This document shows, piece by piece, positions 35,044 to 63,816 of a stretch of 64,000 nucleotides of DNA. The translations under genes were made by a program, and so were the position numbers. Each line of letters opens with the position of its first letter. The first letter of the stretch is position 1. The stretch is from an uncultured Gemmatimonadales bacterium (GTDB lineage: Bacteria; Gemmatimonadota; Gemmatimonadetes; Longimicrobiales; RSA9). The stretch covers positions 352,001 to 416,000 of the forward strand of contig CAWCRS010000002.1 of assembly GCA_963798085.1 (NCBI GenBank). Direction: 5' to 3'. Below the pieces are notes generated by a model. It did not search any database. It saw nothing but the letters and a program-made list of their open reading frames with translations, and had not been told where the DNA came from.

Positions 35044-35175
35044 AGCGAACATCTCAGAGGTTCATGACTGGCCGGAGCCGCTTGCGGCGCAGGCCTGTCC
35101 GCGCCCGTCACGAGCGACCCGCCTCGGCCATTGCGGCGGCCGGCAGGCCGCCGAGCGTGAAATTGCGCGTTAATG
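35044..35175. repeat. attC-like repeat
   Basis: AGCGAAC...GTTCATG...GCCGCTTGCGGC...CGTGAAATTGCGCGTTAATG. Confidence 0.85.
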
Positions 35176-35275
35176 CTGCAGAGCGCGCGCAGCGCCTGCG
35201 GCACCCTGACGCGCGGGTCTGCCACACCGCGTGGCCATTTGCCTGCAACGTCGAAACCCTTCGGGCAATTCTGCA

Positions 35276-35848
35276 TTACTGCCCTTGTCGGCGCTGCGCG
35301 TCGGCCAATAGGCCTGCAATATCGGCGTGACCCAGGGACTCCGCCAATTCACGCGCCGTTTCGCAATCGTCGATGCGGGTTCGTAGACCCGGGTCGGCGC
35401 CATACTCCAGAAGGAGCGCTACAGCATCCGAATGCCCTTCGCCAACCGCATAATGCAAGGCGGTGTAATCGTTGATGCCACGTTGATTGGGATCCGCCCC
35501 AAAGGACAGGAGCAGCCGCAGGACCTCAAGCACATCGGGCCGGCCTGGCGCACCCGGTTGGGGGCGAGAGCAGCTCAGTGTCGCAATGAGGGGCGGGAAT
35601 CCATCGTCGACCTCGAGCCTGGGGTCAGCCCCCATCTCGAGAAGCGTCCGGATAAACACTACCGGGCTGTGGTAAATCGCGTACACCAAGCAAGGGCCAA
35701 CGGCGAGCGGCATTGGCCCGTTGGGTATCGCGCTCGGCTGATCCACCGCGGCCTCGAGCGCGGCCAAATCACCGGCACGGAACGCCGCGTCGATCCTCCG
35801 GAACTGCTCATGCTCGGCGCAACGCTCCTGTTCTGACTTCATGGCCAC
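35276..35848 (-). CDS. ankyrin repeat protein
   Basis: LLEMGADP, LLSFGADPN..DYTALHYAV, LLEYGADP. Confidence 0.85.
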   Translation of the reverse strand: MAMKSEQERCAEHEQFRRIDAAFRAGDLAALEAAVDQPSAIPNGPMPLAVGPCLVYAIYHSPVVFIRTLLEMGADPRLEVDDGFPPLIATLSCSRPQPGAPGRPDVLEVLRLLLSFGADPNQRGINDYTALHYAVGEGHSDAVALLLEYGADPGLRTRIDDCETARELAESLGHADIAGLLADAQRRQGQ

Positions 35849-36057
35849 TCATTCATGATTCTGAAACTGTTCGCGCTGCCATGTACTGCAAACCAGTCTA
35901 CCTGCAGCGCCCGCTCAGGTCACAATCTCGAAGGCGATTCCATGTCTGTCGGCTCGCCGCAAGGGGCCAGACCGCACACGAATTCAGCCTGACATGGCTC
36001 ATGCCCTCACAAATCTGCGTCAGCGACCACACCAACGCGATGCGTGCGCTCTGTTGC

Positions 36058-36172
36058 ACCTAATGTAGATGAGTTCATGACGTGCTGGAGCTTACGGCAA
36101 GGGCGGCGCAGGCACGTCTGGCGCCGCCGGCAGGGCCGCGCCAGCGGCCGCAGCCTGAACTGTATGTTAGCT
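36058..36172. repeat. attC-like repeat, shortened
   Basis: ACCTAAT...GTTCATG...GGGCGGCGCAGGC...CTGAACTGTATGTTAGCT. Confidence 0.75.
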
Positions 36173-36339
36173 GATGCGAATTGCGCCCTGGATGGCCACG
36201 CCATGGTGCCTTGGCAGAGCCGATGGTCTTGCGCCGTGGCGGTGCTGCACGTCTGACAAGTTCTACGACCTGCGCATCAGCTGCAAAGGCTCGGCGGCTG
36301 GCGCACGAAGAGCGCTCCCCCATCAGCTACACGTCCTGC

Positions 36340-36804
36340 TTAGACCCCGGAAGAGAGCGTTGCCGGATCTCGCCCTTCTGCACCGGACTCGAGTGCCTTC
36401 ATGGCCTTGCGATTGCGGCGCTTCATCCATGCCATCGTGCCACCAACGAAGAGGCTGTACTGCCCCGCGGCTGCGGCCGGAAAGAACCAATAGACCCCGC
36501 CTCCATTGAGCGCTGCCCCGATGGCCGTTCCGATCACGACAGCGCTGCCCACGCAGACGGTTGCGCCGAGCGCGAACCCCATACGCCGCGCGATCTGCTC
36601 GACGCAGGGAGCGCACATGAGCTGCCCCTGGATGAGGGAGGGCCCAGTCGATGCTCCTCTCGCATAAAGAGGGCCGCTACAATGCCCGCACAACTCGACC
36701 GCATTGCGCCGCCTGGATCTACCGGCAGATACGGCGACGGAGAGTGCGCCGGCCACGGGCACCGCTCCGAGTCCAGCCACGATGATGTCGATGATGGGAA
36801 CCAT
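36340..36804 (-). CDS. membrane protein with a CxxC...CxxC motif
   Basis: CGHC and CAPC between TM segments; GGAGG RBS. Confidence 0.55.
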   Translation of the reverse strand: MVPIIDIIVAGLGAVPVAGALSVAVSAGRSRRRNAVELCGHCSGPLYARGASTGPSLIQGQLMCAPCVEQIARRMGFALGATVCVGSAVVIGTAIGAALNGGGVYWFFPAAAAGQYSLFVGGTMAWMKRRNRKAMKALESGAEGRDPATLSSGV

Positions 36805-37201
36805 GAGTTGGCCTCCCCACGGTACGATGGACGACGGTTGCCGGCCGCGGGAGTAAAGCCAGCCACTCACCGAAGTATCGGAGCCAACCCAGGCGGAGTG
36901 GAGGCCCCGCTTACTCGGCTGAAGCAACCTACGCGTTACCTGCGGCCCCGGGGTGGATCAGCTCTACTCGGCATGCCAACACGCGTGGACCGTGCGTAGT
37001 CACGGGCTGTCTGGCAGCGAAACTGCGACTGCGAAATTCTGGCGACGACATGCACACATGGCGCGGTTCCCGTTGTACCAAACTGCGGTGGTCGGATCCT
37101 GCGCCCATGATCCATCGACCGCCACTGAATCGACGAACCATCTCTGCATTACCGTCCTACCCAGTTCGCCTTCGTCTTCTGTTCCACGCGCCGCACATAG
37201 T

Positions 37202-37346
37202 ATCTAACGTGATGGGTGTTCACGACGTGCCGGAGTCGACCGCCAGGGCGGCGTAGGCATCTCCGCGCCCTTCATCGAGCTGCCCGCCTCGGCCCCTGCG
37301 CGGCTGGCGGCCGAGAGGCCGCCGTGCGGGAAATGGCGTGTTAGAA
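37202..37346. repeat. attC-like repeat
   Basis: ATCTAAC...GTTCACG...CGGGAAATGGCGTGTTAGAA. Confidence 0.9.
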
Positions 37347-37595
37347 TGATGCAAACTGGGCCCGTGGTAGCGGTGCACACCATGCATCGGTGTGCGAGAA
37401 GCCTGCCGAGGGAAGATGTCAAGTTTAGGCCGTGTGATAACGACTTGTGCTTCTGCTGTGAGGCCTTGCCGAAACGGCCGTGAAGCCAAGAACGCAAAGG
37501 TATCTCGCGGCCGCTGAGGCGCTCTGGACATGGGCAGCAGCAAGTGCCGGTCATGCTGCGAGCCGGCGCTGCTGAGCCGCGCCTTACTCCGCGCG

Positions 37596-38336
37596 TCACG
37601 GACTGATCGGCACGTCCTCGAAGGGCTCCGAGACGCCGGGGATAATAAATGTCACTCGGGAGGACGAAACCGGCGGCGCATTGAACTTCGCCCAGGTGTT
37701 CAGAATCTGGTGGGCGCCGACCTGGAGTTTGGCGGCAGCGTATCGCTGGGCCACCGCCTGGTTGCTCGCGTCCCGCAAGACCTCAAACTTGGTCCGGGTC
37801 GCTCCATCGAGGAAGTTGACCTCCTCCGCCAGGCTGTAGGTGCAGCCCATACCCACGCACCCGGCCTGCTCAAACGCTAGCGGCTCTTCGCTGCCGTTGA
37901 TGTATTGCCACCGGGCCGTCACGGTGTTACCGGCGGTGCGTTTTACTTCCAACAGCACTACCAGCACCCCGTTCGCGTCGTGCGAGTGAACGCCCAAGGC
38001 CTGGCCGGGACCTCCCAGATCGGAGGTCATGTTGCAACATGGATCCATGGGATTGCGGACTCGGCCGAGGTTGGCGGCGAATGCCATGCCCTTGTGCAGC
38101 TTCGCGAGCGGCACATCGAAGGCATCCCCCAGCTGGATGTTGGTGAACGTCGCCGGGCTGGTCACCGCAAAGGCGAAGTACTTGGCACTGGCCCGATCGA
38201 TGGCGGTGATGGTTCGTGTCGTCTCGTCCCTGGCCACGACGTTGCAGCAAGGCTCTGCGATTGACCGGCTTCCCCCAATCCAGCCGATGGCTCCCAAGCT
38301 CAGGCAGGTGAGGCGGTACCTTCGAATGGTCTTCAT
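37596..38336 (-). CDS. secreted hypothetical protein
   Basis: signal peptide; PCCN occurs twice; GGAGG RBS; fills a cassette. Confidence 0.65.
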   Translation of the reverse strand: MKTIRRYRLTCLSLGAIGWIGGSRSIAEPCCNVVARDETTRTITAIDRASAKYFAFAVTSPATFTNIQLGDAFDVPLAKLHKGMAFAANLGRVRNPMDPCCNMTSDLGGPGQALGVHSHDANGVLVVLLEVKRTAGNTVTARWQYINGSEEPLAFEQAGCVGMGCTYSLAEEVNFLDGATRTKFEVLRDASNQAVAQRYAAAKLQVGAHQILNTWAKFNAPPVSSSRVTFIIPGVSEPFEDVPISP

Positions 38337-38650
38337 GCTGGAACCCTCCTCCAATGGAAACAATGGACACGCGAAGATCGACGCTCCGCCTTACGTCGGA
38401 TATCCAGAAAGGGCCCTGAACGTCGCTGCATAACACGGATAGCCGGGTCCGCTTGAGACTCCTCTCGAGAAATCAGCGTCCGTTCTAACGTCCGAGACTC
38501 ACCAATTGCGTCAACGTTCAATTGACATCGCTGCATAATGTTGCACCGACGCCTCGGCATAGCAAGGGTCCATACGCGGTCCCGTGTAAGGGCTCACAAC
38601 CGAAGGGGTCGACCAAGCTATTTCCGTATTCGTTGGGCCCAGTTTGCGCC

Positions 38651-38785
38651 AGCTAACGTGAACAGGTTCATGACGCGCCGGAGCCGCTTGCGGCGCAGGC
38701 GTGGATGCGCCTGCTGAAGCGTAACCGCGTGAATAGCCTGCGCGGGGGGCCGCGTCAGCGGCCCTGCATGAACCAAATGTTAGCC
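38651..38785. repeat. attC-like repeat
   Basis: AGCTAAC...GTTCATG...CATGAACCAAATGTTAGCC. Confidence 0.9.
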
Positions 38786-38872
38786 GCAGTGAAATCCTAT
38801 GCCTGCCTTGCGCAGCCGTTTGGCCAGCCGACACATGGTCTGGCGATCGCCCGCACGACGGCCATCGCCGGC

Positions 38873-39199
38873 TCAGGGAGCAAACATCTCCGCCAACGTC
38901 ACCAACACCTGGTCTTGAGTCTGCTTGTCAATCCGGCCCAGTCGCTTGACCAGTCGGGCCTTATCCACCGTGCGGATCTGATCCAAGACGACTTGACCGT
39001 CCTTCTTCTCAAAACGGCAGCTCACCCGCGTCGGGTAAGAGCGGCCCTTCGTGGTCATGGGTGCGATGTTCACTGTCCCGATGTAGCGGTTCATTTCTTC
39101 CGGGCTGATAATCAGCGCGGGCCGCGTCTTCTTGATCTCTCGCCCCACGGTTGGGTCAAGATTCACCAGGTAGACATCGAACCGTTTCACCAACGCCAC
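38873..39199 (-). CDS. mazF: PemK/MazF family toxin
   Basis: KRFDVYLVNLDPTVGREIKKTRPALIISP...DQIRTVDKARL. Confidence 0.92.
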   Translation of the reverse strand: MALVKRFDVYLVNLDPTVGREIKKTRPALIISPEEMNRYIGTVNIAPMTTKGRSYPTRVSCRFEKKDGQVVLDQIRTVDKARLVKRLGRIDKQTQDQVLVTLAEMFAP

Positions 39200-39444
39200 T
39201 CCGACTCGCCCCAGCGCGGCCCCGAAAGCGTAGCCTGCGGATCCAGCAAGGCGTCATCGCCCTTCTCGGCCATCACTTGAAAGGCAATTGCCCACCCTTC
39301 GCGAGGTTTGCCGCTGCGTCGGATCACAATAGCGCCCTTCTCCACTTCGAGCTCCACCTCGTCCGTCAGACCGGATTGCTCCAGCAAGGGCTTCGGGATG
39401 CGAATCCCTTGCGAGTTGCCGATGCGGACAATGCGGGTTTTCAT
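39187..39444 (-). CDS. mazE: AbrB/MazE family antitoxin
   Basis: MKTRIVRIGNSQGIRIPKPLLEQ; overlaps the toxin start. Confidence 0.92.
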   Translation of the reverse strand: MKTRIVRIGNSQGIRIPKPLLEQSGLTDEVELEVEKGAIVIRRSGKPREGWAIAFQVMAEKGDDALLDPQATLSGPRWGESEWRW

Positions 39445-39465
39445 TGCGACCTCCTGGCTGCTTGG

Positions 39466-39484
39466 GTGGCCACAATGTAATCAC
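39466..39484. promoter_or_regulatory. imperfect palindrome upstream of mazE, possible operator
   Basis: GTGGCCACAATGTAATCAC about 20 bp upstream of the antitoxin start. Confidence 0.4.
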
Positions 39485-39577
39485 GACGCCTCACCCAAGC
39501 AATCCCTGAGGCGCAACCCTTGGCCTGGGCTGCTCCTATGTCACGACCGTTTTGGGAACAGCACGGGATTTCATTGC

Positions 39578-39696
39578 AGCTGACGTATGAGGATTGCTGA
39601 CGTGCCAGAGCCCACCGCAGGGCGGCGCAGGCAAGTCGCGCCCGTCCCGAGCTGTCCGCCGCGGCCACTGCGCGGGCGTGAAACGACGTGTTAGGT
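39578..39696. repeat. attC-like repeat lacking the terminal side hairpin
   Basis: AGCTGAC...GGGCGGCGCAGGC...CGTGAAACGACGTGTTAGGT. Confidence 0.85.
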
Positions 39697-39801
39697 GACG
39701 TGCCCTGCCGTTGCATGGGATCCGGCTATTGCATGAGATAACTAATCGCTACCGATATTCCGGGGCTGTCGCGATACCGGGATCGAGGCCGGATGTGCTC
39801 G

Positions 39802-40136
39802 CTACTCCTCGATGAGGTGTCGCACACCCCGATGAAGGCTGGGAATGTGATTCTGGACGACATCCCACACGATGGCGTAATCAACCCCCAGGTAGTCATG
39901 GATCAGCCTGTCCCGCATGCCGCAATCCGACGCCAATCAATCTGCGGATGACCTTCCCGAAATGCATCCGGGAGCTTCTTCACGGCCTCGCCAATGATCT
40001 CAATGCTGCGTACGAAAGCCCGCTGTAGCGTCCCGTTTGCCATGAACTCGTCTGCAGTCACACGGGCACTTTCGCGAATCAGGGAGTCCGCCTCCTGAAG
40101 GATGTGACGGAGGTAGTCACGCGGCTCGAAGGACAT
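39802..40136 (-). pseudogene. HepT/DUF86 (HEPN) toxin, frameshifted
   Basis: DYLRHIL...RSIEIIGEAVKKL...IDWRRIA, then RDRLIHDYLGVDYAIVWDVV in another frame. Confidence 0.85.
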
Positions 40137-40242
40137 CCTCTGCGTCGCCAGAATGCGAGGACCGATGTAGGGCGACAGGGCCTCGATGGTGATAAGCTCA
40201 ACCCGGCGCCCGAGCCGGGCTTCAAGGAGCTCCGCCAGAGAA
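40120..40242 (-). pseudogene. C-terminal fragment of an MNT nucleotidyltransferase antitoxin
   Basis: ISLAELLEARLGRRVELITIEALSPYIGPRIL; 5' part absent and fused to an attC half-site. Confidence 0.75.
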
Positions 40243-40256
40243 ATGACGTGTTAGAC
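40240..40256. repeat. truncated attC-like half-site
   Basis: GAAATGACGTGTTAGAC matches the right end of intact copies (e.g. 51629-51643). Confidence 0.75.
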
Positions 40257-40307
40257 GAAGTCCGCCGCCGTTGCTTGGAACTGGCTAATGGCCTCGGACG
40301 GGCCGGG

Positions 40308-40683
40308 CTAACTGTTGGATGCCGACCCTGGAAACCGCGGCCGAATGCGAAGACCGGTCTTCATTAGCACAGAAAACGCGCCAGGGAATTCGTGCCCACG
40401 TTGGCGCACTGCGTCTGAGAGGAGTTGCTTGCGCTCCTTCATCGGCACACCCGCCAAGCGAATCAGGAGTACACCGTGCGTTGCCAGCCGCTGGCGGAAT
40501 ACCAATTGCCCGAAGCCCTTGTCGCGCGTGATGAGAATGGCCGCGTCTCGATTGGCCATCGCCAAGACCTCTTCGTCCATGCAGTCCGCCTTGATCTCGG
40601 TCATGTACGCAACCTCATGGCCTTCATCGCGTAGGCGTTGGACCAGGGGGCCGTCGACGTCCCGCATCGCACAGGAACTTCAA
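40308..40683 (-). CDS. DUF5615 PIN-like toxin, apparent +1 frameshift near the start
   Basis: TTG-KFLCDA, then DVDGPLVQRLRDEGHEV...DEEVLAMA...ILITRDKGFG; overlaps the DUF433 stop. Confidence 0.75.
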
Positions 40684-40913
40684 GCCGCTTCATCGGGAGT
40701 CGGGTACACGAGCTCGCCGCTCAGGACTTCCGCTGCATAGGTCAAGGCGCCCTGGATCGCTTCACGGGGAAGCTGAGGGTAGGCTTCCAGCACCTCGTCA
40801 ACCGTCTCGCCCGCGCCCAGACGCTCCAGGATATTCTCAACCGTGATCCGCGTTCCCCGGATCACTGGCTTGCCCAGCATTACCTTGGGGTTTACCTCAA
40901 CAAAGGCATTCAT
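40680..40913 (-). CDS. DUF433 antitoxin
   Basis: NPKVMLGKPVIRGTRITVENILERLGAGETVDEVLEAYPQL. Confidence 0.9.
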   Translation of the reverse strand: MNAFVEVNPKVMLGKPVIRGTRITVENILERLGAGETVDEVLEAYPQLPREAIQGALTYAAEVLSGELVYPTPDEAA

Positions 40914-41242
40914 CCCAGACCTCCATGCGATTGACCGAACGACGTAAGATGACCGCCAAATGTGGGCAAATCAAGCCTCTACGTGCCGGAAGGACGGCGG
41001 CGGATTTCGGCTTTCTATGGATTGTCTGCTGTCAAGCCCCACGCTTTCAAGCGACACGATTCCGTTCAGTGCGGTTCACACTGTTCCAGCGAACGACTCG
41101 ACGTCGGCGGCTTCATGAGTTTGTGCGGCAGGCTGCGCCGTCACGCCCTTCTATCCGTGCCGGCCGCAAGGGAACCGGTCACCCTCTACTGCATGCGCGC
41201 GATCCACTCGTGCGCCCTGAAGCCGCTGTCGGGATGGGCTCC

Positions 41243-41252
41243 ATCTAACGTA
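41243..41252. repeat. lone attC-like R box abutting the IS110 3' flank
   Basis: ATCTAACGTA matches the start of repeats such as 43512 (GCTAACGTA); the rest of the repeat is missing. Confidence 0.5.
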
Positions 41253-42400
41253 CGGTTTCCTCATGGGAGAACCACCCGCCATAACGAACTCCACCTCTCG
41301 ACGTCGTCTGTCAAACAGCGGTGCTTGCTTCCGATCAGGCCGTACGCAGCTTCGCGCCTTCCGGTACCACGCCCGCATCCGCATAGCGCCAGAGCGCAAT
41401 CAGCAGCTTGCGCGCCAGTGCCACAATGCCGATCCGTCGCATGCGTTTCCCGCCATGACCGAAGCGCGCTTCGTACCAGCGGCTCAGCTGACTTCGCGGC
41501 TGGAAGCGAAGCCAGCACCAGGCAATCTCGATCGCCATCGCCCGGACCGGCCGGTTGCCCGCCTTGGTGATCCCCAGCTCGTGATCCATCTCGCCGCTCT
41601 TGTGCGGCGTACCCACCAGTCCCGCCAGCGCTCCCACCTGACGTCGATTGCGGAACTGTCGCCAACTGAAGAATTCCATGCTGAAGGTCCAGGCACTGTT
41701 CAGGCCGATCGCTTTCAATGATCCCAGGCGCCGTACCATGGTGTACGCGGGCTCACTCGACGTGCGGAGCAGTCGCCGCCGTTCCGCTTCCACTCGCCGG
41801 ATCTGCTGCTTCACCAGCAACACCCGCTCCCACTCCCGCTCCAACCGCGCCCGCAGCGCCGCCGGGAGCTTCGTCCGGTTCCAGAGCCGCGCCCGGCTCA
41901 AGCGTGCGAGAAAGTCCGTGACCAGCTCGAGCCGCAACCCCTGACTGGCCAGCAGGCCCTTGATCCGGTTCGTCAACCGCGTCGGCTCGTGCTTCAGCGT
42001 CTCCAGCTCCCGGTGCAGCTGCCGCCGGTCTTCCTCTTCCACACTCGGAACCTGCACCACACTCCAGGTGCGTACTTCTCCGCCACAGTACTCCACCAGC
42101 ATGCGCAGCAGCTTCGTCAGATCCACACGGTCCGTCTTCACGCGCCGCCGCCCTGGCCACACCTCGAAGCTCGTCGCATCCACCACCAGACTCCTCACTC
42201 CGTTCGCCTCCAGAAACCGGTGCAGCCAGAATCCCTCACGTCCCGCTTCGTAGCAGCACACCACCTTCGCATCGCTCTTCAGACTGAAGCGCCGCTTCGC
42301 ACGTCCCACTTCCTCCAGAAGCGCTTCTCGTCCCGTGCCTTTCGCATGAGCTCCTCCGGGTTGTGAGAGACTGCGGTAGGAGCTTAACAGCAGCGGCCCG
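41253..42400 (-). mobile_element. IS110-family transposase (ORF 41335..42309), N-terminally damaged; element ends approximate
   Basis: CYEAGREGFWLHR, KTDRVD, AGLVGTPHKSG, GITKAGN, IVALARKLLIALWR; ATG at 42347 is out of frame and the first acidic catalytic strand is not seen. Confidence 0.85.
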
Positions 42401-42430
42401 TCTTCTCGAATTCTGCGCGCCCTGAGTTTC

Positions 42431-42574
42431 AGCTAACGTCTCGGCTGTTCACGACGTGCCAGAGCCGACCGTCAGGGCGGCGCAGGCATGTCCGCGCCCT
42501 TCACGAGCTGCCCGCTTCGGCCACTGCGCGGCCGGCGGCCCACAGGCCGCCGAGCGTGAAATGGCGTGTTAGAT
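42431..42574. repeat. attC-like repeat, consensus type
   Basis: AGCTAAC GTCTCGGCT GTTCACG...CGTGAAA TGGCGT GTTAGAT. Confidence 0.92.
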
Positions 42575-42640
42575 GATGCGCTGCACGCCCGCTTGGCTTG
42601 CGCTACCGCATTCCGAAGACCCACGCCCAATCAGCCCTCG

Positions 42641-43084
42641 TCAGCTCGGCCATGGTGTCATGTACTGAAACTTAATGTAGTGACCAACCTCGTCGAGATC
42701 AGCCACATTCTCCGAGACGAGCGTCGCGCCCGATTCCCGGCATGAGGCTGCGAGCAGGTAGTCATTGACCAACGATTTCGGGATCGTTCGCAGGTCTCGC
42801 TTCTCCTTCCGCGCCATCCGGGCAATCGCCTCGGCCGACGCCTGCCATGCCCCATGGCTCGGGGTGATGACCCGCCCCGCGCGCAGCAGCGGGACGGCCA
42901 TGGTTTGCATGATGTGTTGATGCTTGGCCTCCGTGTTGGCACCAACCAGCAGTTCGTGCAGGACGATCGAGCTCAGATAGGTGCTGGGTGTGAAGGCAGC
43001 GTAGTAGTCGCGGAGTTGCTGGGCGCCTTTCTCGCTGCGGAATGCCCGTACGTACAGGTTCGTGTCAAGCACATACCTCTTCAC
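42641..43084 (-). CDS. vapC: VapC-like PIN-domain toxin
   Basis: YVLDTNLYV, SSIVLHELLVG, NDYLLAASC, LVSENVAD. Confidence 0.9.
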   Translation of the reverse strand: MKRYVLDTNLYVRAFRSEKGAQQLRDYYAAFTPSTYLSSIVLHELLVGANTEAKHQHIMQTMAVPLLRAGRVITPSHGAWQASAEAIARMARKEKRDLRTIPKSLVNDYLLAASCRESGATLVSENVADLDEVGHYIKFQYMTPWPS

Positions 43085-55399: not shown

Positions 55400-56410
55400 T
55401 CAACGACCGTGATGCTTGGCAATGTCAGCCTCGGTCAGCCGCAGGAATCTCGCTGCATTGTTGTACAGAATGTCCCGCTTTTGCTCCTGCGAGAGAAACG
55501 ACGCATTCTCGATTCGCGTGATTCCTCGCTCGATCGTTTCAGGCCATACCATTTGATCCGACCCAAACATAACGCGATCGCCAAACCCAGCGTCGACGAT
55601 CGTGCGAAGGTAGCGATAGAACTCGGCTTCGGGCAGCGCATACACGATGATGCCCACGTCCACGTACACTTGGGGATGTGTCCACAGCACCGCCAGTAGG
55701 TCGTCCAGCATCGGCCAGCCCGCGTGCATGATGTAAATGCGAAGCCGCGGGTGACGTACCAGTGCTTCCTCAAGGAGCAGCGGACTGTGCAGGCGAGCTC
55801 GGTAGCCCTCAAAGCCGAGGTAGGGAGCTCCCGGAGGTCCTGTACCGATATGGATGCCCACGGGTATGTCCAACGCCTCGGCAACGGTCAAATAGGGGTC
55901 GAAGATCGAATCGCTTGGGCCAATGCCCGCGTACTGGTTCGTCACCTCTCCCAGCACGGCCAAAGCGCCCGACGCATGAAGGCGGCGGATGGAGTCCGGC
56001 GTGATCTGAGTGTCGGCAATGTTGAACATCAGGCCTGGAATGATCCGGTCCGGGGCATCAGCCCTCCACCGTTGGACGAAAGCAACGGAGCCACTGGTCA
56101 CCCCGATAATGTTACGTCGCTCGAGGATCTCCAGCGTGCGCCGCTCAAGTTCTTGATCGGTCTCCGGCGACCAGGCGGGATTCGAACACGCTGGATTCTT
56201 CAACGCGGCCATGAAAACAGCCGGCCAAGGCCGGGACGCATCGAAGTGCAAACCCACAATGGGAGTGCATATCGCCAATGGTGGAGGCCCTTGGGAACTT
56301 GCCGCCACCGCGTGAAGGTGCATGTCAATTACCGGATCGGGCCGCCGTTGTCCAGCGACGGGAACAAAAAGGCCCAATGCGAGAGAAGCGACGACGACGG
56401 TTGTCCTCAT
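55400..56410 (-). CDS. amidohydrolase_2 family secreted protein
   Basis: IDMHLH, VGIHIG, MHAGWP, MFGSD, YNNAARFL. Confidence 0.88.
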   Translation of the reverse strand: MRTTVVVASLALGLFVPVAGQRRPDPVIDMHLHAVAASSQGPPPLAICTPIVGLHFDASRPWPAVFMAALKNPACSNPAWSPETDQELERRTLEILERRNIIGVTSGSVAFVQRWRADAPDRIIPGLMFNIADTQITPDSIRRLHASGALAVLGEVTNQYAGIGPSDSIFDPYLTVAEALDIPVGIHIGTGPPGAPYLGFEGYRARLHSPLLLEEALVRHPRLRIYIMHAGWPMLDDLLAVLWTHPQVYVDVGIIVYALPEAEFYRYLRTIVDAGFGDRVMFGSDQMVWPETIERGITRIENASFLSQEQKRDILYNNAARFLRLTEADIAKHHGR

Positions 56411-56574
56411 GATTCACGCTCCGGGAACAACCCTAGGATTGCAGTCCCGGCTCCCTGCTGACGTTGCCTCGAAGCAACCTCCAAGCTTCAGCGCGGCCCA
56501 TGCGATGTCAATGAGCACACGCACACTAAACATGCGCGTCAGTGGCTTTAGATCTTCCGAGGGGATCAGATTGC

Positions 56575-56718
56575 ACATAACGTCTCGGTTGTTCACGACG
56601 TGCCGGAGCCGACCGGCAGGCGGCGCAGGCATGTCCGCGCGCTTCCAAGTGCCGCCCGCCTCGGCAGTTGCGCGGCCGGCGGCCGCCAGGCCGCCGAGCG
56701 TGAAAGGACGTGTTAGCG
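56575..56718. repeat. attC-like repeat
   Basis: ACATAAC...GTTCACG...CGTGAAAGGACGTGTTAGCG. Confidence 0.92.
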
Positions 56719-56751
56719 GATGTCGAGCCGGCGCGATGCTGTTTGGCAACA

Positions 56752-58389
56752 CTATTCTGCGACCTCTTTCTGCTTCAAGAATGCTGCGGCTTCAGCCAGT
56801 TCTGGACGTCGTGATTGCTTCGCGGCCAGACGTAGCAGTTCGCGATAGTAGGTCCTCGCGAGGCTAGTGTCGCCAGCGCGTCCAGCCGATCTGGCGGCGC
56901 CAGCAAGACTGTTGAAACGCCCGGGTTCCGATTTCAGCGCTGCTTCATAGGCCTGGAGTGCGGCCGCTGGGCGGTCGAGCTCGAGCAGCAAATCACCCAG
57001 AAGCTCCGAGGCTGGCAGGATGGGCGCGGGCGTCACAGGAGGTTTGGGTGTACTGGCCTCAAGGCGCACGGCTTGCTGCATGAGCGCAAGCGCACTGTCT
57101 GTATTGGCTGCCGCCTCTGCAAGCCATGCCGCAACGCTCAGCCGCAGAATCTCGGTCTGGCGAGCGAAGAGGTCCTCTCCCATTCGCTGCGACGCATCCC
57201 TCAGAGCGCTGAGGTGCCTTTGCGCTTCTTGCGCCGCGGGTACGTTTCGGGTTCGGATTGCGCCAATGCCGCGGGCAAACCACGTGACGGCTTCTGGCCA
57301 TGGGAAAAGATCCCAGGTGAGGGTGGAATCAGGCCGCGGGGTGAGGCGGGACGCCTGCGTCCAGTCCCGTCGCTCGAGCGCGTATCGGGCCGGAATCGAC
57401 GACAGGTGAAACGCAGTCTTGAAGCTCGGCTGGAGATTGGTCGTCTGCTGCAGCCGCGCCATCGCCATCGCGGCAGCCGAATCGTCTCCAACCTGAAGTA
57501 GGGCATAGACCAGGTACTCAATCGTATGCGGGAACTCGTCCCAGACCCACTGCTGGCGGTCGCCGGCCGGAGTCTCCAACGCCGCATCCGCGGCCTGACG
57601 ATTGCCGTCAATGACAGATGCCCAATCTCCCAGCCGAACGTAGATGTGGGTCGGCATGTGCAGCGCGTGCGGATTTCGGGGCGCGATTTCCACGTAACGA
57701 CGCACGACGTCGAGGGATTCCGTCTCGCGGCCAACTGCATCATTTGCGTGGATCATGTAGTGAACCGCCCCGGGATGCATTGGTTCAACGGCAAGAATCG
57801 CCTGCAGCACCGCTGCCGCTTCATTCTGGTGCGTCAGCCCTCCCGTTGAGGGAGCTGTAGCCAGAACGGAAAGGGCAAAGAACGCCTTGGTCTCCACCTC
57901 CTGCGGGTATGCCTCGTACAGCGCGCGCGTAGCCTCGGCCCACTTGGCAATGCGTTCCCAGTAGCCATTGACCGCTGGGTCGAAGAATGCTGCGGTCGTG
58001 GCAATAAACATCGTGTCCCGGCGCGTCCCCGCCCCACTCGCCTCGGCCCGCAACACCTCTTGCCAACCGTGCTCCAGATCGTCCGCGCTCGGGCGGGTGG
58101 GCCAGAGCGGCTGAAAGTACGTCATCGCGATCCCCCAGTGGGCCATGGCGCACTCCGGATCCGCTGAGGCAATGGCGGAGAATTCGGCTCGGGCCCGCGA
58201 ATACGTCATGTGGTGGAGTAACGCCACCGCATGGTTGAACTGCGCTTGTGTGTTCTCCCTGCAGGAGATCTCGAAATGTACGACTCCGAGGTGTTCCAAT
58301 GCGGTATCGTGCTGGCCTGATGCTTCGACTGGGACGAGTGCAGTGACAGTGGCTACGACCAGCGCAACGATAACATGATGCGTTGCCAT
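56752..58389 (-). CDS. secreted TPR-repeat protein
   Basis: LGVVHFEISC, DPECAMAHWGIAM, HPGAVHYMIHAND, HALHMPTHIYVRLG. Confidence 0.8.
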   Translation of the reverse strand: MATHHVIVALVVATVTALVPVEASGQHDTALEHLGVVHFEISCRENTQAQFNHAVALLHHMTYSRARAEFSAIASADPECAMAHWGIAMTYFQPLWPTRPSADDLEHGWQEVLRAEASGAGTRRDTMFIATTAAFFDPAVNGYWERIAKWAEATRALYEAYPQEVETKAFFALSVLATAPSTGGLTHQNEAAAVLQAILAVEPMHPGAVHYMIHANDAVGRETESLDVVRRYVEIAPRNPHALHMPTHIYVRLGDWASVIDGNRQAADAALETPAGDRQQWVWDEFPHTIEYLVYALLQVGDDSAAAMAMARLQQTTNLQPSFKTAFHLSSIPARYALERRDWTQASRLTPRPDSTLTWDLFPWPEAVTWFARGIGAIRTRNVPAAQEAQRHLSALRDASQRMGEDLFARQTEILRLSVAAWLAEAAANTDSALALMQQAVRLEASTPKPPVTPAPILPASELLGDLLLELDRPAAALQAYEAALKSEPGRFNSLAGAARSAGRAGDTSLARTYYRELLRLAAKQSRRPELAEAAAFLKQKEVAE

Positions 58390-58470
58390 TTCGCGCCTCT
58401 CTGCTTTCAGTGTCCACTACATGTCCAGTGACGCCACACACATCCCAACACGGTTTTCCGGCTCGATTTC

Positions 58471-58613
58471 CGCTAACGTTTCTGGTGTTCACGACGTGCC
58501 GAAGCCGGGCGAAGCACGGCGCAGGCATGTCCGCGCCCTTCAACTGCTGCACGCTTCGGCCGTTGCGCGGCCGGCGGCCGCCAGGCCGACGTGCGTGAAA
58601 TGACGTGTTAGGC
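58471..58613. repeat. attC-like repeat
   Basis: CGCTAAC...GTTCACG...CGTGAAATGACGTGTTAGGC. Confidence 0.92.
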
Positions 58614-58639
58614 GTAGGCGGCCCCGCTGCTCGGTGATG

Positions 58640-59848
58640 CTACTTCACCAGGGTGTATTGCCGAATGAACTCGACATCAGCCTCGTTCTGCCAGACACCA
58701 AGTACATAATCCACGCCAATGTCCTGGATGTGGAATTTCGCCGGTACAGCGAGCGTGCCAAGCAGCCGGCCGTGACCGTCGAATATGATCCATGGGCCAA
58801 GGGGCTCGCCATATATCTCTGTGGGACCCAGCCAGATATTGCGCTCCGGGTCGACCAGAATCCGCTCGAAGGCGGGCTTGCGTTCCGGCAAATGCATCTT
58901 GGCCCATCCCGCTTCAGCCGTTGCCCGTGCTTCTGGCCGCATGCGGGCGAGAATTGCATTCGTGAACAGTGCTACATCGGAAGGCTTGAGCGTCAAATCC
59001 GGTGTCGGGCCACGGAGAATACGCTTGACCGCGCCGGCCGAGTCCAGAACCAGGACCTCGTAGGAGTCACCGAGTCCGACCAAGAGTTGGTTGCCGTCAG
59101 GATGAACTGCCAGCGTATGGCTGAACGGCGGCTGTGCATACGAGGGACGATCTCCGTCCATTGTGAGGCTGATCTCCTGGCCTGGAAAGGTATGCACGGT
59201 GTCTACCGTCGCGCCGTCCCGGGAGAATGCCAGGATGGGCGCAGTGATTCTGTGTAAACCCGGGCCGACCGATGGTGGAACGTCCTGTGAGCTCCACCCG
59301 ACCGTGGCGCCGAAACGGCCATCGGGGAGGGGAAACACGTTGTCTATCGGTGCAAATCCTGGCTGCTGCAGGGTTACGGAACGACCGTAACGGCCGGATT
59401 CATCAAGGATTGAGATACGCCTCAATGGCAAATCGTACACGAACAGCGAATCTCGGCGGAATCGCTGTATTGATCCAATGTACCTGTACTCACCGGGGCC
59501 ACTTCCGCTACCGCCCGTCGCGAAGAGAAAGGTGCCGCGTGAATCGAAGAACCGGATGCGGCTCGAGCCACCATCGGCGACAACGATCGTGCCATTCGGA
59601 AGGCGGACGGCGCCTCGGATCCGGAAGAACTGGTAGATCGAATCGCCATCCACGGCACCGATCTGAACCGCGGGCTGCGACGCCAGACTCCATGCAACGT
59701 CGGAGGTCCACGCGATCTGGGTCGTGGAAACGACTTCGATTCCGGAGCTGTCCTGGACAGTGTAGTGAGCACGCGAACCGCTGCCGACACAGCCTGCAAA
59801 CAGAACGGTGTTCAGCGCGATGGCTATCCCGCTCGAAGTCCGTTTCAT
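58640..59848 (-). CDS. 6-bladed beta-propeller lipoprotein
   Basis: lipobox FAGC; VQDSSGIEVV; GGSGSGPGEY; VDPERNIWL; paralog of 52880..54091. Confidence 0.85.
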   Translation of the reverse strand: MKRTSSGIAIALNTVLFAGCVGSGSRAHYTVQDSSGIEVVSTTQIAWTSDVAWSLASQPAVQIGAVDGDSIYQFFRIRGAVRLPNGTIVVADGGSSRIRFFDSRGTFLFATGGSGSGPGEYRYIGSIQRFRRDSLFVYDLPLRRISILDESGRYGRSVTLQQPGFAPIDNVFPLPDGRFGATVGWSSQDVPPSVGPGLHRITAPILAFSRDGATVDTVHTFPGQEISLTMDGDRPSYAQPPFSHTLAVHPDGNQLLVGLGDSYEVLVLDSAGAVKRILRGPTPDLTLKPSDVALFTNAILARMRPEARATAEAGWAKMHLPERKPAFERILVDPERNIWLGPTEIYGEPLGPWIIFDGHGRLLGTLAVPAKFHIQDIGVDYVLGVWQNEADVEFIRQYTLVK

Positions 59849-59886
59849 TCAGTGACCCTCCGTCGCTGGAACAAGGGGCCGCTTTC

Positions 59887-60025
59887 GCCTAACGTGATGG
59901 GTGTTCACGACGCGCCGGAGCCGCTTGCGGCGCAGGCGTGTCCGCGCCCCTCCCAGGCTACCCGCCTCGGCCATCTGCGCGGCCGGCGGCCGCCAGGCCG
60001 CCGTGCGTGAAATGCTTTGTTAGAT
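59887..60025. repeat. attC-like repeat
   Basis: GCCTAAC...GTTCACG...CGTGAAATGCTTTGTTAGAT. Confidence 0.92.
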
Positions 60026-60107
60026 GATGCACGTTGAGCCCTGCTTGCTGAGCCCATTCCCTTGCCAGATCGCGACCTCTGTAGCGCCTGATCCGCTGGA
60101 CAACCGC

Positions 60108-60476
60108 CTACGGTTCGTCTTCCGGGCTGTCAGCAATCGGGAACGCACCAGCCGCCGCCTTCAGCAGTGGCGCAACCTCCGGCAGATTCATGGTCGCGGT
60201 CCGCCACACGATTCCCAGATCCACAACGAAGTAGTCATGGATCAGCTTGTGACGAAGACCGGTGATCTCACGCCACGGGATCTCCCCGTGCGCCTTCACG
60301 AACCCGGCCGACACTCGGCCCGCAGCCTCACCGAGCACCTCCAACTCGCGGATTACCGCATCCTGAACTACCCAATCGCGGTCGAAGGTCTGCCGATCGA
60401 TCCTGGTGAGCAGCTCAGCGACCCGTCCGATCGCGGCCAGCATGTGATGGATAAACAGCGCGTCAGGCGGCCGCAT
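60108..60476 (-). CDS. hepT: HepT/DUF86 (HEPN) RNase toxin
   Basis: DAVIRELEVLGEAA; IPWREITGLRHKLIHDYF (Rx4HxY). Confidence 0.88.
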   Translation of the reverse strand: MRPPDALFIHHMLAAIGRVAELLTRIDRQTFDRDWVVQDAVIRELEVLGEAAGRVSAGFVKAHGEIPWREITGLRHKLIHDYFVVDLGIVWRTATMNLPEVAPLLKAAAGAFPIADSPEDEP

Positions 60477-60753
60477 CAAAAATGACAGACGCGCTCGAGA
60501 GAATGGATCGCCTCAAGTAGGGGCTGAGACCCGGCTCGGTCACCAAGTCTACCGGCCGGTCGAACACGGCTTGCAGCTCATCCTCCAAGCGGATTAGCTC
60601 GAAGAGCCCCTTCGGAGCGCCAAAATCCACGATGAGGTCGATATCCGAGTCCGGACGCTCCACGCCGCGTGCGGTAGAGCCAAACAGCCGGAGCCGCGTC
60701 ACGTCATTGCGCCGGCAGATCTCGGCGAGCCGCTTCTGATCGAACGTTACCAT
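60463..60753 (-). CDS. mntA: MNT nucleotidyltransferase antitoxin
   Basis: LFGSTARGVERPDSDIDLIV (GSx10DxD); overlaps the HEPN start. Confidence 0.88.
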   Translation of the reverse strand: MVTFDQKRLAEICRRNDVTRLRLFGSTARGVERPDSDIDLIVDFGAPKGLFELIRLEDELQAVFDRPVDLVTEPGLSPYLRRSILSSASVIFDAAA

Positions 60754-61066
60754 CGGGACAAGTCTACGACTTGGCTGCCGCAGGTCAAGGTGGCCAACGG
60801 GTAAGGCCTTGGACTCGGCGCTGCAATACACCCTGAAGGTAATCCGCGCTGGACGGGATAGGCCTGCTCCATACAAGGTCGCTGTGTGGATGGGCCCGCA
60901 GCACGAGAACCTGCTTCTACCCTCAATGACGGAACCATCAGACGCGGTCCACGCCCGCCGCAATCAATCCCCTCGGAACGAGCCGCATCGCAACATGCTT
61001 CTCGCTTCACGGCGAGCACGCTCTCCGCTGACCCACTTCGTTGATCCGTTGGGCTCAACGTGTTTC

Positions 61067-61210
61067 AGCTAACGTCTCGGGTGTTCACGAAGCCCCGGAG
61101 CCGACCGCCAGGGCGGCGCAGGCATGTCCGCGCCTTTCACCAACTGCCCGCCTCGGCCACTGCGCGGCCGGCGGCCGTCAGGCCGCCGAGCGTGAAATGG
61201 CGTGTTAGGC
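61067..61210. repeat. attC-like repeat
   Basis: AGCTAAC...GTTCACG...CGTGAAATGGCGTGTTAGGC. Confidence 0.92.
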
Positions 61211-61283
61211 GCAGTCAGTTGCGTGGTTGGAATTGCCGGCAGGCATCCTCCATAGCTCGAATCTGCGCCACCCGATCCTGTAG

Positions 61284-61790
61284 TTACCGGTCCTCAACAA
61301 TAACCTCGACGCCACTGTCTCTCGTCAGATTGTTCATAAAGATCACGAGGTTGTGCCCAGGGTGCCTTGCGCTTGGTACGATCAGGCCTTCGCAACTTAG
61401 CCAGTCTACCGCGTCGCCCACATGCTGTGAAGCCTGGAGGTCGTCTTCGAACAGCACATCCGCTGAGAGGCCGTGCGTATCCAACGACGTGAAATCCTGT
61501 AGGTACACTACTTTCTCGAGAGATGCACTTATGCGATACGTAACGCGTGGAGCAGTTATAGGCCGCGGTTGGCGCGAAGCAAGATAACTGATCTCTGCTA
61601 TGGCTGTCTCGAGCGATAGCGAGGTGTACAGCGCTTCGATGCCTGGTGGATTCCAGCGAGCACCACGTACGTTTGCCTTCAGCGGTTCCGTGCCGGCGAA
61701 AACCTGCCGCCAACACTCACCCGCCCATTCGGTGACGTGCTCTTCAAGCGTGTCCAAGAGCGCCGGATCGAACGGGCGGGTGAATCGCAA
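61284..61790 (-). CDS. RES-domain (NAD+-targeting) toxin
   Basis: GARWNPPGIEALYTSLSLETAIAE; GLIVPSARHPGHNLVIF. Confidence 0.88.
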   Translation of the reverse strand: MRFTRPFDPALLDTLEEHVTEWAGECWRQVFAGTEPLKANVRGARWNPPGIEALYTSLSLETAIAEISYLASRQPRPITAPRVTYRISASLEKVVYLQDFTSLDTHGLSADVLFEDDLQASQHVGDAVDWLSCEGLIVPSARHPGHNLVIFMNNLTRDSGVEVIVEDR

Positions 61791-61795
61791 TGTCG

Positions 61796-62134
61796 TCAGC
61801 TGTAGGAGGCAGACTGCAGGCGATCTATCAGCGCCAAGACCTCATTGATCCGATCATGGGCAATCAATTCGGCCGGGCGCTCGCCGCCGAGATCTCGGTG
61901 GTGGCTAAACAACCAGAGCCTAGCCTCGTCGGGGCTGTAGAACTGAGATAGTTGGTCAGCAAGCCACTCTAGCTTCAAAAGCCGATCGAGGCTGCTCGGC
62001 TGTGGAGCCGATCGACCGTTCTGCCACCGTGAAACCGTCTGCTCAGTAATCTCAAGGAGTTGCGCTACTTCGCGTGCAGATATGCCGCTGCGCGCCTTGA
62101 TATTATCCAGCTTCCGTGCTAGTGCCGTTGCCAC
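61796..62134 (-). CDS. Xre/MbcA/ParS-like antitoxin
   Basis: HTH SAREVAQLLEITEQTVSRWQNG; C-terminal ARLWLFSHHRDLGGERPAELI; GAGGGG RBS. Confidence 0.88.
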   Translation of the reverse strand: MATALARKLDNIKARSGISAREVAQLLEITEQTVSRWQNGRSAPQPSSLDRLLKLEWLADQLSQFYSPDEARLWLFSHHRDLGGERPAELIAHDRINEVLALIDRLQSASYS

Positions 62135-62160
62135 CCTGTGCCCCCCTCTCCCCGTTCATT

Positions 62161-62171
62161 TGACAATGTCA
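62161..62171. promoter_or_regulatory. palindromic putative operator upstream of the Xre gene
   Basis: TGACA-A-TGTCA in the 46-bp gap between the large ORF and the antitoxin. Confidence 0.45.
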
Positions 62172-62180
62172 CCATCTGAC

Positions 62181-63445
62181 TCATGCTCCCCATTGCTGGA
62201 TGCGACGCCCAGTCGGGATGTGGGCGATGGACGGTTCATCGCGCTTGTCGATCATCCTCTGGTCGCTAAGCGCCGTCCTCCATTCGTCGAGACGCTTACA
62301 ATGTTTCGACAGGCGCGGCAGTACCCTTGCTGCTACGCCAACTCGATCGCTTGCTGGTCGGAGCCAAGTATCTAGGTATTGATCCGGCCGAACTTGCACC
62401 GGCACACGGGACAGTTCCGCAATTTCATCTGACCGACACACAAGAAAATGGCGACGTGGGTCGCGAAGCATGTCGTGAATGCCGCGCTTGCAACATGGCC
62501 TCTGGCACCCAAAACGATTCTTGGCGCTTCGATCGGTAAACAGCTGTTCCGCTTCGTTCTGCTTGATGAAAGCGCCAATCTCCGCCAAATAGACCCTCGG
62601 AGCCGGCATGAACCCAGCCGAACCACTTGGTTCTCGCAACAGGGGTTTGACATCGAACCGTTCGCCGAACGTGACGCCTTGCTCAATTCCGCCTACCGCT
62701 CCAAAGGCCAGCAGAGCCAAACCAAGCGTACCAGTGCGCTCCGCAACCACTGGCACGCCAAGACCATGCGTGGAACGGGCAAACTCTATGTAGCGGAGCA
62801 GTGCTCGAGAACTACTCTGTGACGCACCGAATCCAGATACACGAAGCCACAACGCGTCCATGCCGTGTCCACCGATAAGTTCGCGGAGTCGTTCCATCAA
62901 GTGCTTGCGAACAGCGGTAGACTCAAAAGCCTTGGTGTTATCACGAGCGGGTAGTAGATTGAAATGGCGCGTCCGCCCGAGTCGTTCAGCGATTCGCGGA
63001 GGTCCGTGGCTAGCTCGATATCCGAACCGAACCAGCGGCTGGGTATCGAGTCGATATAGTGCGTTGGCGCGAGGACGGCCGTCGCTCTAGCCTGTACGAC
63101 GCACTTTGCAATCCGCTGAGTCAGCTTACGGCACGCGTTGCGAGGCAGTGCTTCCGGCGATTCTCTGCCAAGACCAAACCAAGGCAAGTCCTTCATTCCC
63201 GAACGACTGCGACCGGTCTGCGTAGCCAACTCTACGGACAACGGATCGAGGATCAACTCGAGTCCTTTTTCGCGCGCGACAGCTCGGAGCTCTTCTCCTC
63301 GGTCCAAATGGCGCGGATCCATTATCATTCCTGTCCCCACCTGGACTCCGGCGCTCATCAGACTCATGAGATGGGTGTAGTCTCTCGGGAACGGGCGAAC
63401 GTAGTTCGCCAAGAGGGGCGGCTGCGATCGGGCTCTGGATGCCAT
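62181..63445 (-). CDS. ~420-aa uncharacterised protein, possibly a TIM barrel with a Cys/His cluster; split by a 1-nt deletion near 62940
   Basis: ORFs 62897..63445 and 62181..62900 join if one A is added (GTG ATA AAC ACC AAG); alternating beta/alpha pattern; CQRPCC...RRHF near the C-terminus. Confidence 0.65.
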
Positions 63446-63488
63446 TCGTTGACTCCGACTTGCCGATTGCCTTACCAGAATCATGATC

Positions 63489-63517
63489 ATAATACTTAAC
63501 ATCCACCTGGCTGTCAA
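63489..63517 (-). promoter_or_regulatory. sigma70-type promoter inside the cassette
   Basis: TTGACA-17 nt-TATTAT on the - strand, ~45 bp upstream of ATG 63445. Confidence 0.7.
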
Positions 63518-63672
63518 GACGGCCCGGGGCTCCCCGGGACGTGGCCGTTGAAATGCCTCAACTGGTTGTAAATCATGCGACTTATGGCGGACTCGTTACC
63601 AAGGAATGCGACGGCAGAGGTCCGATGAGTTGCCTGTTGAGCCGCGCGTAAACGCGGGTAGCAACTGATTGC

Positions 63673-63816
63673 GCCTAACGTTCCTGGTGTTCACGACGTG
63701 CCGGAGCCGACCGCCAGGGCGGCGCAGGCATGTCCGCGCCCTTCACGGGCTACTCGCGTCGGCATCTGCGCGGCCGGCGGCCGACAGGCCGCCGAGCGTG
63801 AAATACCGTGTTAGAC
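63673..63816. repeat. attC-like repeat
   Basis: GCCTAAC...GTTCACG...CGTGAAATACCGTGTTAGAC. Confidence 0.92.

Follow-up and report, generated by a model that had tools for sequence, protein, structure and literature searches.

Private end pairing and a fixed mispair in an integron-like cassette array of an uncultured Gemmatimonadota bacterium

In integron cassettes only 7 bp of the R box of the recombination site, attC, are held to be cassette-specific. Clusters of attC sites without an integron integrase are termed CALIN in IntegronFinder, and in the 'reverse' integrons of Treponema the integrase gene is co-directional with the cassettes. In CTX phage, attP is formed by the folded single-stranded phage genome and is recombined by XerCD. 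The IntI-specific helix is held to be the innovation that enabled folded single-strand recombination (Escudero 2016, 2020). The spacers of a classical attC usually measure five to six nt per arm, and over 263 classical sites a bottom-strand bias of 2.12 kcal/mol and an enrichment of G:T were reported (Nivina 2016). Here we describe a cassette array in a window of 64,000 nucleotides, the whole stretch of DNA analysed, which corresponds to C2:352001-416000 (contig C2) of the genome of an uncultured Gemmatimonadales bacterium, hereafter G000. The array follows classical cassette logic, yet arrays of this type adjoin a recombinase without the IntI helix, and their sites carry in addition a stem private to each cassette and a fixed mispair.

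An nhmmer profile made from nine copies of a repeat from the window detected 24 copies there, all on the + strand, from 9862 to 63822. Genome-wide, 64 copies were detected (45 on C2, 9 on C3, 5 on C1 and 5 on C12), and several of these lie where a contig ends. They are direct repeats of ~130-145 nt and delimit a very large array that fills the right half of the window (9862-64000, no strand assigned) and continues past its right edge to C2:444191; up to 28900 only partial or degenerate copies are found (9862-9908, 11338-11481 and 28580-28703). Intervals from 0.2 to 5.7 kb long separate the repeats, most of them with one gene or two. The layout of the repeat is attC-like: YTAAC, an unpaired spacer, GTTCACG, a GC-rich branched centre of ~90 nt, CGTGAAA, a second spacer and GTTAG. 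Alignment of 21 copies and folding in circle context revealed boxes of the R''/L''/L'/R' type with AAC and GTT triplets in an imperfect hairpin. In the 140-nt site at 61069-61208 (+, the proposed folding or bottom strand), for example, CTAAC, a 9-nt spacer, GTTCACG, the branched centre, CGTGAA, a 7-nt spacer and GTTAG follow one another. The minimum-energy fold has no obvious extrahelical bases near L'', and asymmetric spacers (9 versus 6-7 nt) are found instead. An earlier note on this DNA had called the repeats attC. Their anatomy bears this out; assignment to a demonstrated classical integron does not follow, because the neighbouring recombinase lacks the IntI-specific insertion.

The same note had named 14 cassettes whose two ends are reverse complements of each other. 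The ends were compared by setting the 30 nt that start at the G of GTTAG against the reverse complement of the 30 nt that end at the C of the next YTAAC. All 14 pairs proved to be reverse complementary over 19-23 nt. The match is ungapped in 12 of them, with extension scores beyond position 7 of at least 7 (range 7-11), and needs a 1-nt offset in 35169/36064 and 37340/38657 (local scores 12 and 13). The 441 non-cognate pairs that can be formed in the window gave a mean of 1.4, a 99th percentile of 5 and a maximum of 7, against 7-11 for the 12 cognate pairs. Genome-wide, a local score of at least 8 was reached by 36/54 cognate and 36/2862 non-cognate pairs, and 39/52 distinct end-pairs of G000, versus 9/2652 non-cognate ones, matched perfectly over 6 nt or more from position 12 onward. 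Thus, the complementarity is, as claimed, private to each cassette and far above chance.

The paired ends have a regular layout. The first nine positions are conserved (GTTAKNYGM) and would pair between almost any two ends; position 8 is G on both sides in 39/39 end-pairs of G000. Position 10 is T, A or C on one side and A or C on the other, and the sides match in 22 of the 39. At position 11 the side after the repeat has G and the reverse-complemented side has A in every one of the 39, a stricter rule than the mismatch at positions 10-11 described earlier; the mispair reads G.T on the + strand of the window and A.C on the coding strand. A stretch of 6-12 nt that starts at position 12 is perfectly paired and specific to the cassette. 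The own-cassette rule of integrons, by which the sequence behind GTT is complementary to its own cassette's inverse core, holds here, and positions 5-9 co-vary between the two ends. What is unusual here is the pairing beyond position 11, that is, the private stem, together with the fixed mispair at the edge of the arm. No end match was found in 7 of the 21 window intervals (starts 28694, 29048, 31449, 32917, 36166, 39690 and 43647), and a search for alternative partners of these seven returned none. The unpaired intervals are concentrated at window 28.7-49.3 kb, the part of the array most distant from the recombinase side. Stem score was not significantly correlated with repeat score or cassette length (Spearman p 0.05-0.30).

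Several minor features accompany the stems. In one class of cassettes the stem resumes after a single extra G on one arm (CC-G-TACC versus CC-TACC), which amounts to a one-base bulge; examples are C2:415810, C35:4216 of a second genome, G010, and locus L161. A motif YTGSYTGS recurs on the + strand of the window after the left-side private stem of many cassettes (e.g. CTGGTTGCC), and ATCCGTTG is common to about eight cassettes, before the right-side stem on the same strand.

A covariance model of the repeat found the family in 8/60 relatives (9/61 genomes with G000 counted), a tally that takes in the unpublished G015 and G019, used nowhere else. The model had no match in 10 Gemmatimonadota IntI loci or in Gemmatirosa, the sites of which are other families. 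G010, of a different genus in the same family, has at least 52 repeat copies. Runs of at least 6 nt were present in 31/43 of its distinct end-pairs versus 21/1806 non-cognate pairs, and position 11 was G/A in 31/31. Three further genomes, G013, G027 and G032, have more divergent sites that follow the identical position-11 A/G rule, with the polarity expected from the direction of the recombinase gene. One metagenome cassette has the same pattern: a scan for the repeat motif gave 128 stretches, mostly chance matches, 76 loci were profiled, the repeat family was present in 6 and one cassette was examined.

Comparison with classical arrays corrects the baseline of 7 bp assumed in the earlier note, which is too low, since own-cassette pairing already has a median of 11-12 nt in two of them. 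In 33 cassettes of the Gemmatirosa integron the median length of perfect own-cassette complementarity, counted from position 1, was 11 nt, and non-cognate ends gave a median of 5 and a 95th percentile of 7; the corresponding values for 16 cassettes of a Thermoanaerobaculia integron were 12, 5 and 9. Among class 1 cassettes the length was 11 nt for blaVIM-27, 12 for aac(6')-Il, 7 for dfrA1, 8 for dfrB3 and 5 for a DUF1010 cassette. Neither a fixed mispair nor pairing beyond ~14 nt was found in the cassettes compared from these three sources, whereas the array described here has 19-23 nt with the position-11 mispair, against 11-12 or 5-12 nt in classical arrays. Two side observations concern Gemmatirosa kalamazoonensis: on its plasmid 1 (L130) intI and the array are separated by ~660 bp, after which at least 34 sites follow, and Gemmatirosa cassettes share a conserved CAC...CATC motif soon after their start.

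The comparison covered class 1, Gemmatirosa, Thermoanaerobaculia, a Lysobacterales locus and a few other arrays. Of 61 IntI loci of 7 kb or more that were surveyed for self-similarity, only 8 gave usable repeat families, so that the survey is no broad census. Terminal inverted repeats of the form GTT...AAC that score 13 or more were sought in IntI loci of 5 kb and longer; each locus yielded at most 2 genuine pairs, with arms of 13-15 nt, and the same scan returned 12 pairs in window 28-64 kb and 39 on contig C35 of G010. Matches at locus L023 were rejected as simple repeats, and nothing convincing came from the Treponema loci L059 and L073. The cassette logic is that of integrons. Arrays of mostly one or two genes have one imperfect-hairpin site each with conserved AAC and GTT triplets, the sequence after GTT pairs with the far end of its own cassette, and both energy and G:T bias favour one strand. 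The differences, apart from the extended pairing, are the unpaired spacers of 6-7 and 9 nt, the want of recognised extrahelical bases and a recombinase without the IntI insertion. In the literature searched, which did not extend to subscription papers and supplements, we found neither private stems that reach past the R box of a cassette site nor arrays of this kind beside a recombinase without the IntI domain; a search of Larouche and Roy 2011 for extended or flanking complementarity found nothing.

Next to the arrays of this family lies a tyrosine recombinase. Its gene in G000 (C12:7885-8916, -; loci L002 and L132) encodes a protein whose match to TIGR02249 (220 bits, cut-off 265) falls into two stretches and leaves out profile positions 180-234. 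Alignment with the IntI of contig C1 of G000, IntI1 and Gemmatirosa IntI, all of which carry the insertion, left gaps of 31 and 10 columns at this place in the proteins of G000 C12, G010 C35 and G032. The array-adjacent enzyme is of Xer type, with the catalytic core and without the IntI insertion, and has no IntI-specific domain as an integron sensu stricto would require. Model NF040815 gave 201-226 bits (cut-off 220; only the G032 protein passes), and the XerC and XerD models gave 168-207 bits, below their cut-offs. The C12 recombinase forms the C-terminal end of a very long Pro/Ala-rich frame (745 aa from GTG, 1053 aa from stop to stop). Homologues at 50-60% identity are present in many relatives (rows for G015 and G016 left out). 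The recombinase without the IntI insertion is thus associated with arrays of this type by neighbourhood, at 6 loci in 5 genomes, and since it is so consistently found there, the window array is probably not orphaned.

The full integron integrase of G000 is encoded at C1:447332-448432 (+) and scores 410 bits against TIGR02249 (cut-off 265); its best relatives are from Gemmatimonadota. Separately, one Gemmatirosa-type attC of 93 nt was noticed 4.6 kb downstream on the same strand (C1:453005-453097, +), and together the two look like a second, small, classical integron.

The 3' end of the array-adjacent recombinase gene faces the array, and the gene is co-directional with the minus strand of the window, 0.1-2.3 kb from the first boundary at the 6 loci. 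The gap is 355 bp on G000 C12, where non-repeat DNA follows the outermost cassette boundary, 112 nt in G013, 128 nt in G032 and 239 nt in G027; in G010 it is at most 1.15 kb (C35) and at most 2.3 kb (C30). The true integrons of Gemmatirosa and loci L040 and L051 are arranged likewise, with intI followed downstream by an array that runs in its direction. Class 1 sites, when read in the direction of their gene, have an AAC-GTT spacer of 5 nt on the 5' arm and one of 6 nt on the 3' arm, as is also the case in Gemmatirosa; in the window repeat the shorter spacer comes first only on the minus strand (6-7 and then 9 nt). Eleven ORFs (open reading frames) with Pfam support lie on the minus strand, among them those for the APH(6)-like kinase, amidohydrolase, methyltransferase, two beta-propellers, TPR, MNT, HepT, PIN, RES and ankyrin proteins. 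Among near-identical duplicates with unrelated neighbours, the left repeat travels with the cassette in 5/7 informative pairs. From the position of the recombinase, the spacer asymmetry, gene direction and the duplicated cassettes we conclude that the polarity given in the earlier note has to be reversed: the coding or top strand is the minus strand of the window, and what was taken for the start of a cassette is its 3' end. Each repeat then belongs to the cassette on its right, and crossover is expected in the triplet with which the repeat begins on the left. The duplicated cassettes sit in different neighbourhoods, an indirect sign of movement.

The array resembles the co-directional integrons in having a recombinase gene followed downstream by a co-directional array. 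It differs from those of Gemmatirosa, L040 and L051, which have a full IntI and in which own-cassette pairing ends at ~11-12 nt. As in a CALIN, no IntI gene lies beside the window array; unlike in a CALIN, a related tyrosine recombinase consistently adjoins arrays of this type. With CTX phage and XerCD the array would share an Xer-type enzyme without the IntI helix and a hairpin imitating a site that has two arms around an unpaired centre; it differs in that its sites bound arrays of exchangeable cassettes and that their recombination is a prediction. The arms of Xer-type sites are ~11 nt long, and the conserved arm here is ~11 nt as well.

To estimate what the end pairing adds, the end of each of 51 cassettes was joined in silico to its own repeat and folded with DNA parameters. 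The mean energy of the + strand was -56.9 kcal/mol in the circle versus -46.7 kcal/mol in the array, with a median difference of -10.4. As had been proposed, folding in circle context adds an outer stem, with a mean of 18.5 pairs between the two 28-nt flanks versus 5.8 in the array; in the one example shown, the minimum-energy fold in array context has no R stem. Minus-strand folds were less stable than those of the + strand, by 3.6 kcal/mol in circle context and by 2.1 kcal/mol in array context. Since it carries G.T and the coding strand carries A.C, the + strand folds better and is most likely the recombined one, the bottom strand; this assignment agrees with the lower folding energy and with the bottom-strand bias of classical attC sites, the published value of which (2.12 kcal/mol; Nivina 2016) equals the advantage of the + strand in array context.

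We consider it on the whole probable that the paired ends are the split outer part of a recombination site that folds as a single strand. This part would have three layers: the 9-nt arm GTTAKNYGM, the mispair at position 11 (often with one at position 10) and a private clamp stem of free sequence, 7-12 bp long. Strand exchange would take place inside the conserved GTT/AAC triplet, and one outer arm would therefore travel with the neighbouring cassette, so that cognate pairing would exist only in the excised circle. The private stem would act as a clamp that fixes the arm, which is short and AT-rich, together with the mispair in one duplex of defined form beside the large asymmetric internal loop, and only the excised single strand would present the complete site for integration. 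The G.T/A.C asymmetry would help to choose the bottom strand, as has been argued for classical sites. Speculatively, the mispair itself might serve as a protein mark in place of the extrahelical bases.

A number of observations weigh against this reading. A run of 6 nt is absent in 13/52 end-pairs of G000 and 12/43 of G010. The private stem is only 4-8 nt long in G013, G027 and G032, and a long clamp is therefore not essential to the system. Excision from the array must work without the stem. Close paralogues gave one compensated and one uncompensated stem change (position 17, in one copy), and the beta-propeller cassettes (22-38% protein identity), each with a perfect but different stem, fit maintenance but might have acquired their stems independently. 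Four ORFs with Pfam support in 3 cassettes (DUF998, one beta-propeller, Fic with MazE) lie on the plus strand, and the duplicated-cassette test was mixed in other pairs, with a high background in G010. G000 also encodes a full IntI, 28 kb downstream of which five repeats of the window family are found, and two G010 recombinase matches have a stop codon inside the matched stretch. Finally, no circles or joints were found in short contigs (one soil sample; 0.26 share of words), a result that is neutral on movement; the loose ends in the soil-sample contigs are other copies of the repeat.

A further-reaching proposal, which we put forward tentatively and hold to be rather doubtful, is that the arrays belong to a sister system of integrons, in which a Xer-like recombinase without the IntI helix would read a hairpin marked not by extrahelical bases but by a fixed mispair at the outer edge of an 11-nt arm, which a cassette-private clamp stem would keep in position. 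If this were true, single-strand cassette recombination would not require an IntI-specific domain. A site complete for integration and incomplete in the array would give the system a built-in directionality, which would explain its very large, stable arrays. Should the stem and the mispair be functional, they would also offer a handle on how excised and integrated sites are told apart, on strand choice and on evolution from Xer-like ancestors. Irrespective of this, the ~11-12 nt of own-cassette pairing in two classical arrays matters for the modelling and annotation of attC sites and for their cloning for assays.

Among explanations that give the stem no part in recombination or place its action elsewhere, the best surviving one is that it is a footprint of cassette birth, the hairpin and its base having been made whole, for instance by a retroelement or by template switching, and split at the first integration. 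The stems would then be young and would have no present function. Their private and free sequence agrees with such an origin, as does the clustering of stemless cassettes farthest from the recombinase side (window 28.7-49.3 kb); short ORF-less cassettes with stems (229-271 bp) could be empty carriers, and one arm of 22 nt has a group II intron fragment right at its foot. Unselected stems should decay, yet most are perfect, and the mispair nearby is fixed in 70/70 end-pairs. Stem score is uncorrelated with repeat quality. Two cassettes, one from G000 and one from G010, are 76% identical in body, carry the same stem and differ in the arm on both sides, and in one pair of paralogues in G010 (747 bp and 744 bp) stem position 16 differs on both ends. 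We therefore regard a birth footprint as unlikely.

Somewhat less probable still is pairing within the integrated array, where single-stranded ends of one cassette would pair, the body would loop out, the flanking sites would meet and excision would be favoured. Cognate pairing over 20 bp is indeed stronger than the consensus-level pairing of 5-9 bp available to an array site, and the folded example that forms no R stem in array context fits this scheme; however, the ends lie 0.7-2.7 kb apart, and their pairing would remove the R' half needed by the upstream site. A role in RNA, by which the 5' and 3' ends of the cassette transcript would pair and affect stability, processing or translation, we rate slightly lower again: read along the coding strand, the stem directly precedes the ORF and, on the far side, closely follows or overlaps its end, but sense RNA would carry A.C while the pairing-competent G.T is on the non-coding strand, the end polarity is unchanged in three cassettes whose genes lie on the opposite strand, and the feature tracks the recombination triplet rather than gene starts or stops. 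Chance, or an artefact of aligning the conserved flanks of the repeat, could account for positions 1-9, which pair in any combination, and is refuted beyond position 11 by the shuffled-pair control (39/52 cognate versus 9/2652 non-cognate matches).

The repeat copies that bound the window intervals, all on the + strand, are given here with the end of AAC and the start of GTT in brackets. The leftmost are at 28913-29052 (28917, 29048), 31312-31453 (31316, 31449), 32785-32921 (a CTAAT variant; 32789, 32917) and 35046-35173 (a CGAAC variant; 35050, 35169), followed by a short and degenerate copy at 36060-36170 (36064, 36166). Copies at 37204-37344 (37208, 37340) and 38653-38783 (38657, 38779) precede a CTGAC variant at 39580-39694 (39584, 39690). 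The next are at 42433-42572 (42437, 42568), 43514-43651 (43518, 43647), 49339-49479 (49343, 49475), 50316-50455 (50320, 50451), 51509-51642 (51513, 51638) and 52683-52822 (52687, 52818). Further right lie those at 54123-54263 (54127, 54259), 55195-55330 (55199, 55326), 56577-56716 (56581, 56712), 58473-58611 (58477, 58607), 59889-60023 (59893, 60019) and 63675-63814 (63679, 63810).

All cassette bodies with paired ends are assigned to the minus strand. The two that need the 1-nt offset are 35169-36064 (local score 12), with an ankyrin-repeat ORF on the minus strand, and 37340-38657 (local score 13). Private stems of 8 nt are found in 38779-39584, where the stem runs from position 12, in 49475-50320, in 58607-59893 with a beta-propeller ORF (58640-59848, -) and in 61204-63679 with a RES-domain ORF (61284-61790, -). 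The stem is 9 nt long in 55326-56581 and 56712-58477, which carry an amidohydrolase and a TPR protein ORF, respectively, both on the minus strand. Three cassettes have stems of 10 nt: 51638-52687 with a methyltransferase ORF on the minus strand, 52818-54127 with a beta-propeller (DUF5128) ORF (52880-54091, -) and 54259-55199 with the APH(6)-like kinase ORF on the minus strand. Stems of 11 nt occur in 42568-43518, with a PIN-domain ORF (42641-43084, -), and in 50451-51513, a 99.9% identical copy of which is present at C2:424119; the longest, of 12 nt, is that of 60019-61073 with an MNT/HepT toxin-antitoxin pair (60108-60963, -). The open frame of the kinase reaches within one base of the cassette boundary. 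Its product (window 54260-55162, -) belongs to the APH(6)/hydroxyurea-kinase family (PF04655, E 1e-40), a resistance-like gene in what is apparently a soil bacterium.

The intervals with unpaired ends have no strand assigned. The leftmost, 28694-28917, is 224 nt long and runs from a degenerate to a full repeat. It is followed by 29048-31316, which has a group II intron 5' fragment at its right end, 31449-32789 with a DUF998 ORF on the plus strand, 32917-35050, the ends of which are unpaired beyond position 11, and 36166-37208. In 39690-42437 a stretch resembling the tail of a repeat (~40240-40283) hints at a missed degenerate site. The last, 43647-49343, measures 5.7 kb and has a protein of ~400 aa, 99% identical, in common with another 5.7-kb interval, C2:437142-442854; only the ends of the latter pair. 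The common protein may represent a mobile element inserted into cassettes.

The intron fragment matches domains D1-D4 of a group II intron (31023-31257, -, with flanks to ~31294; RF02005, 138.8 bits). Its putative 5' splice site, GTGCG, lies 22 nt inside the cassette boundary, at the place where a private stem would end. Group IIC-attC introns insert at the foot of the hairpin of a recombination site, and the fragment might be one of them. The intron appears truncated, a single 5' fragment followed by only a short ORF, and no further copies were found elsewhere in G000 or in G010, G013, G027 and G032.

Cassettes of toxin-antitoxin type carry HepT with MNT, PIN, RES, and Fic with MazE, the last pair (C2:433461-434147, +) on the strand opposite to most cassette genes. 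ORF-less cassettes of 229-271 bp with a private stem were noted at C2:426449-426677, C12:6917-7168 and C12:7300-7530, and in G010 at C35:8935-9205 and 33921-34190; one of them is the cassette closest to the C12 recombinase gene. Paralogues of the beta-propeller (DUF5128) protein occur in several cassettes (window 52880-54091, -, and 58640-59848, -; C2:417042-418295, +), and one of these genes is reversed relative to its own recombination site, with the end polarity of the cassette still standard.

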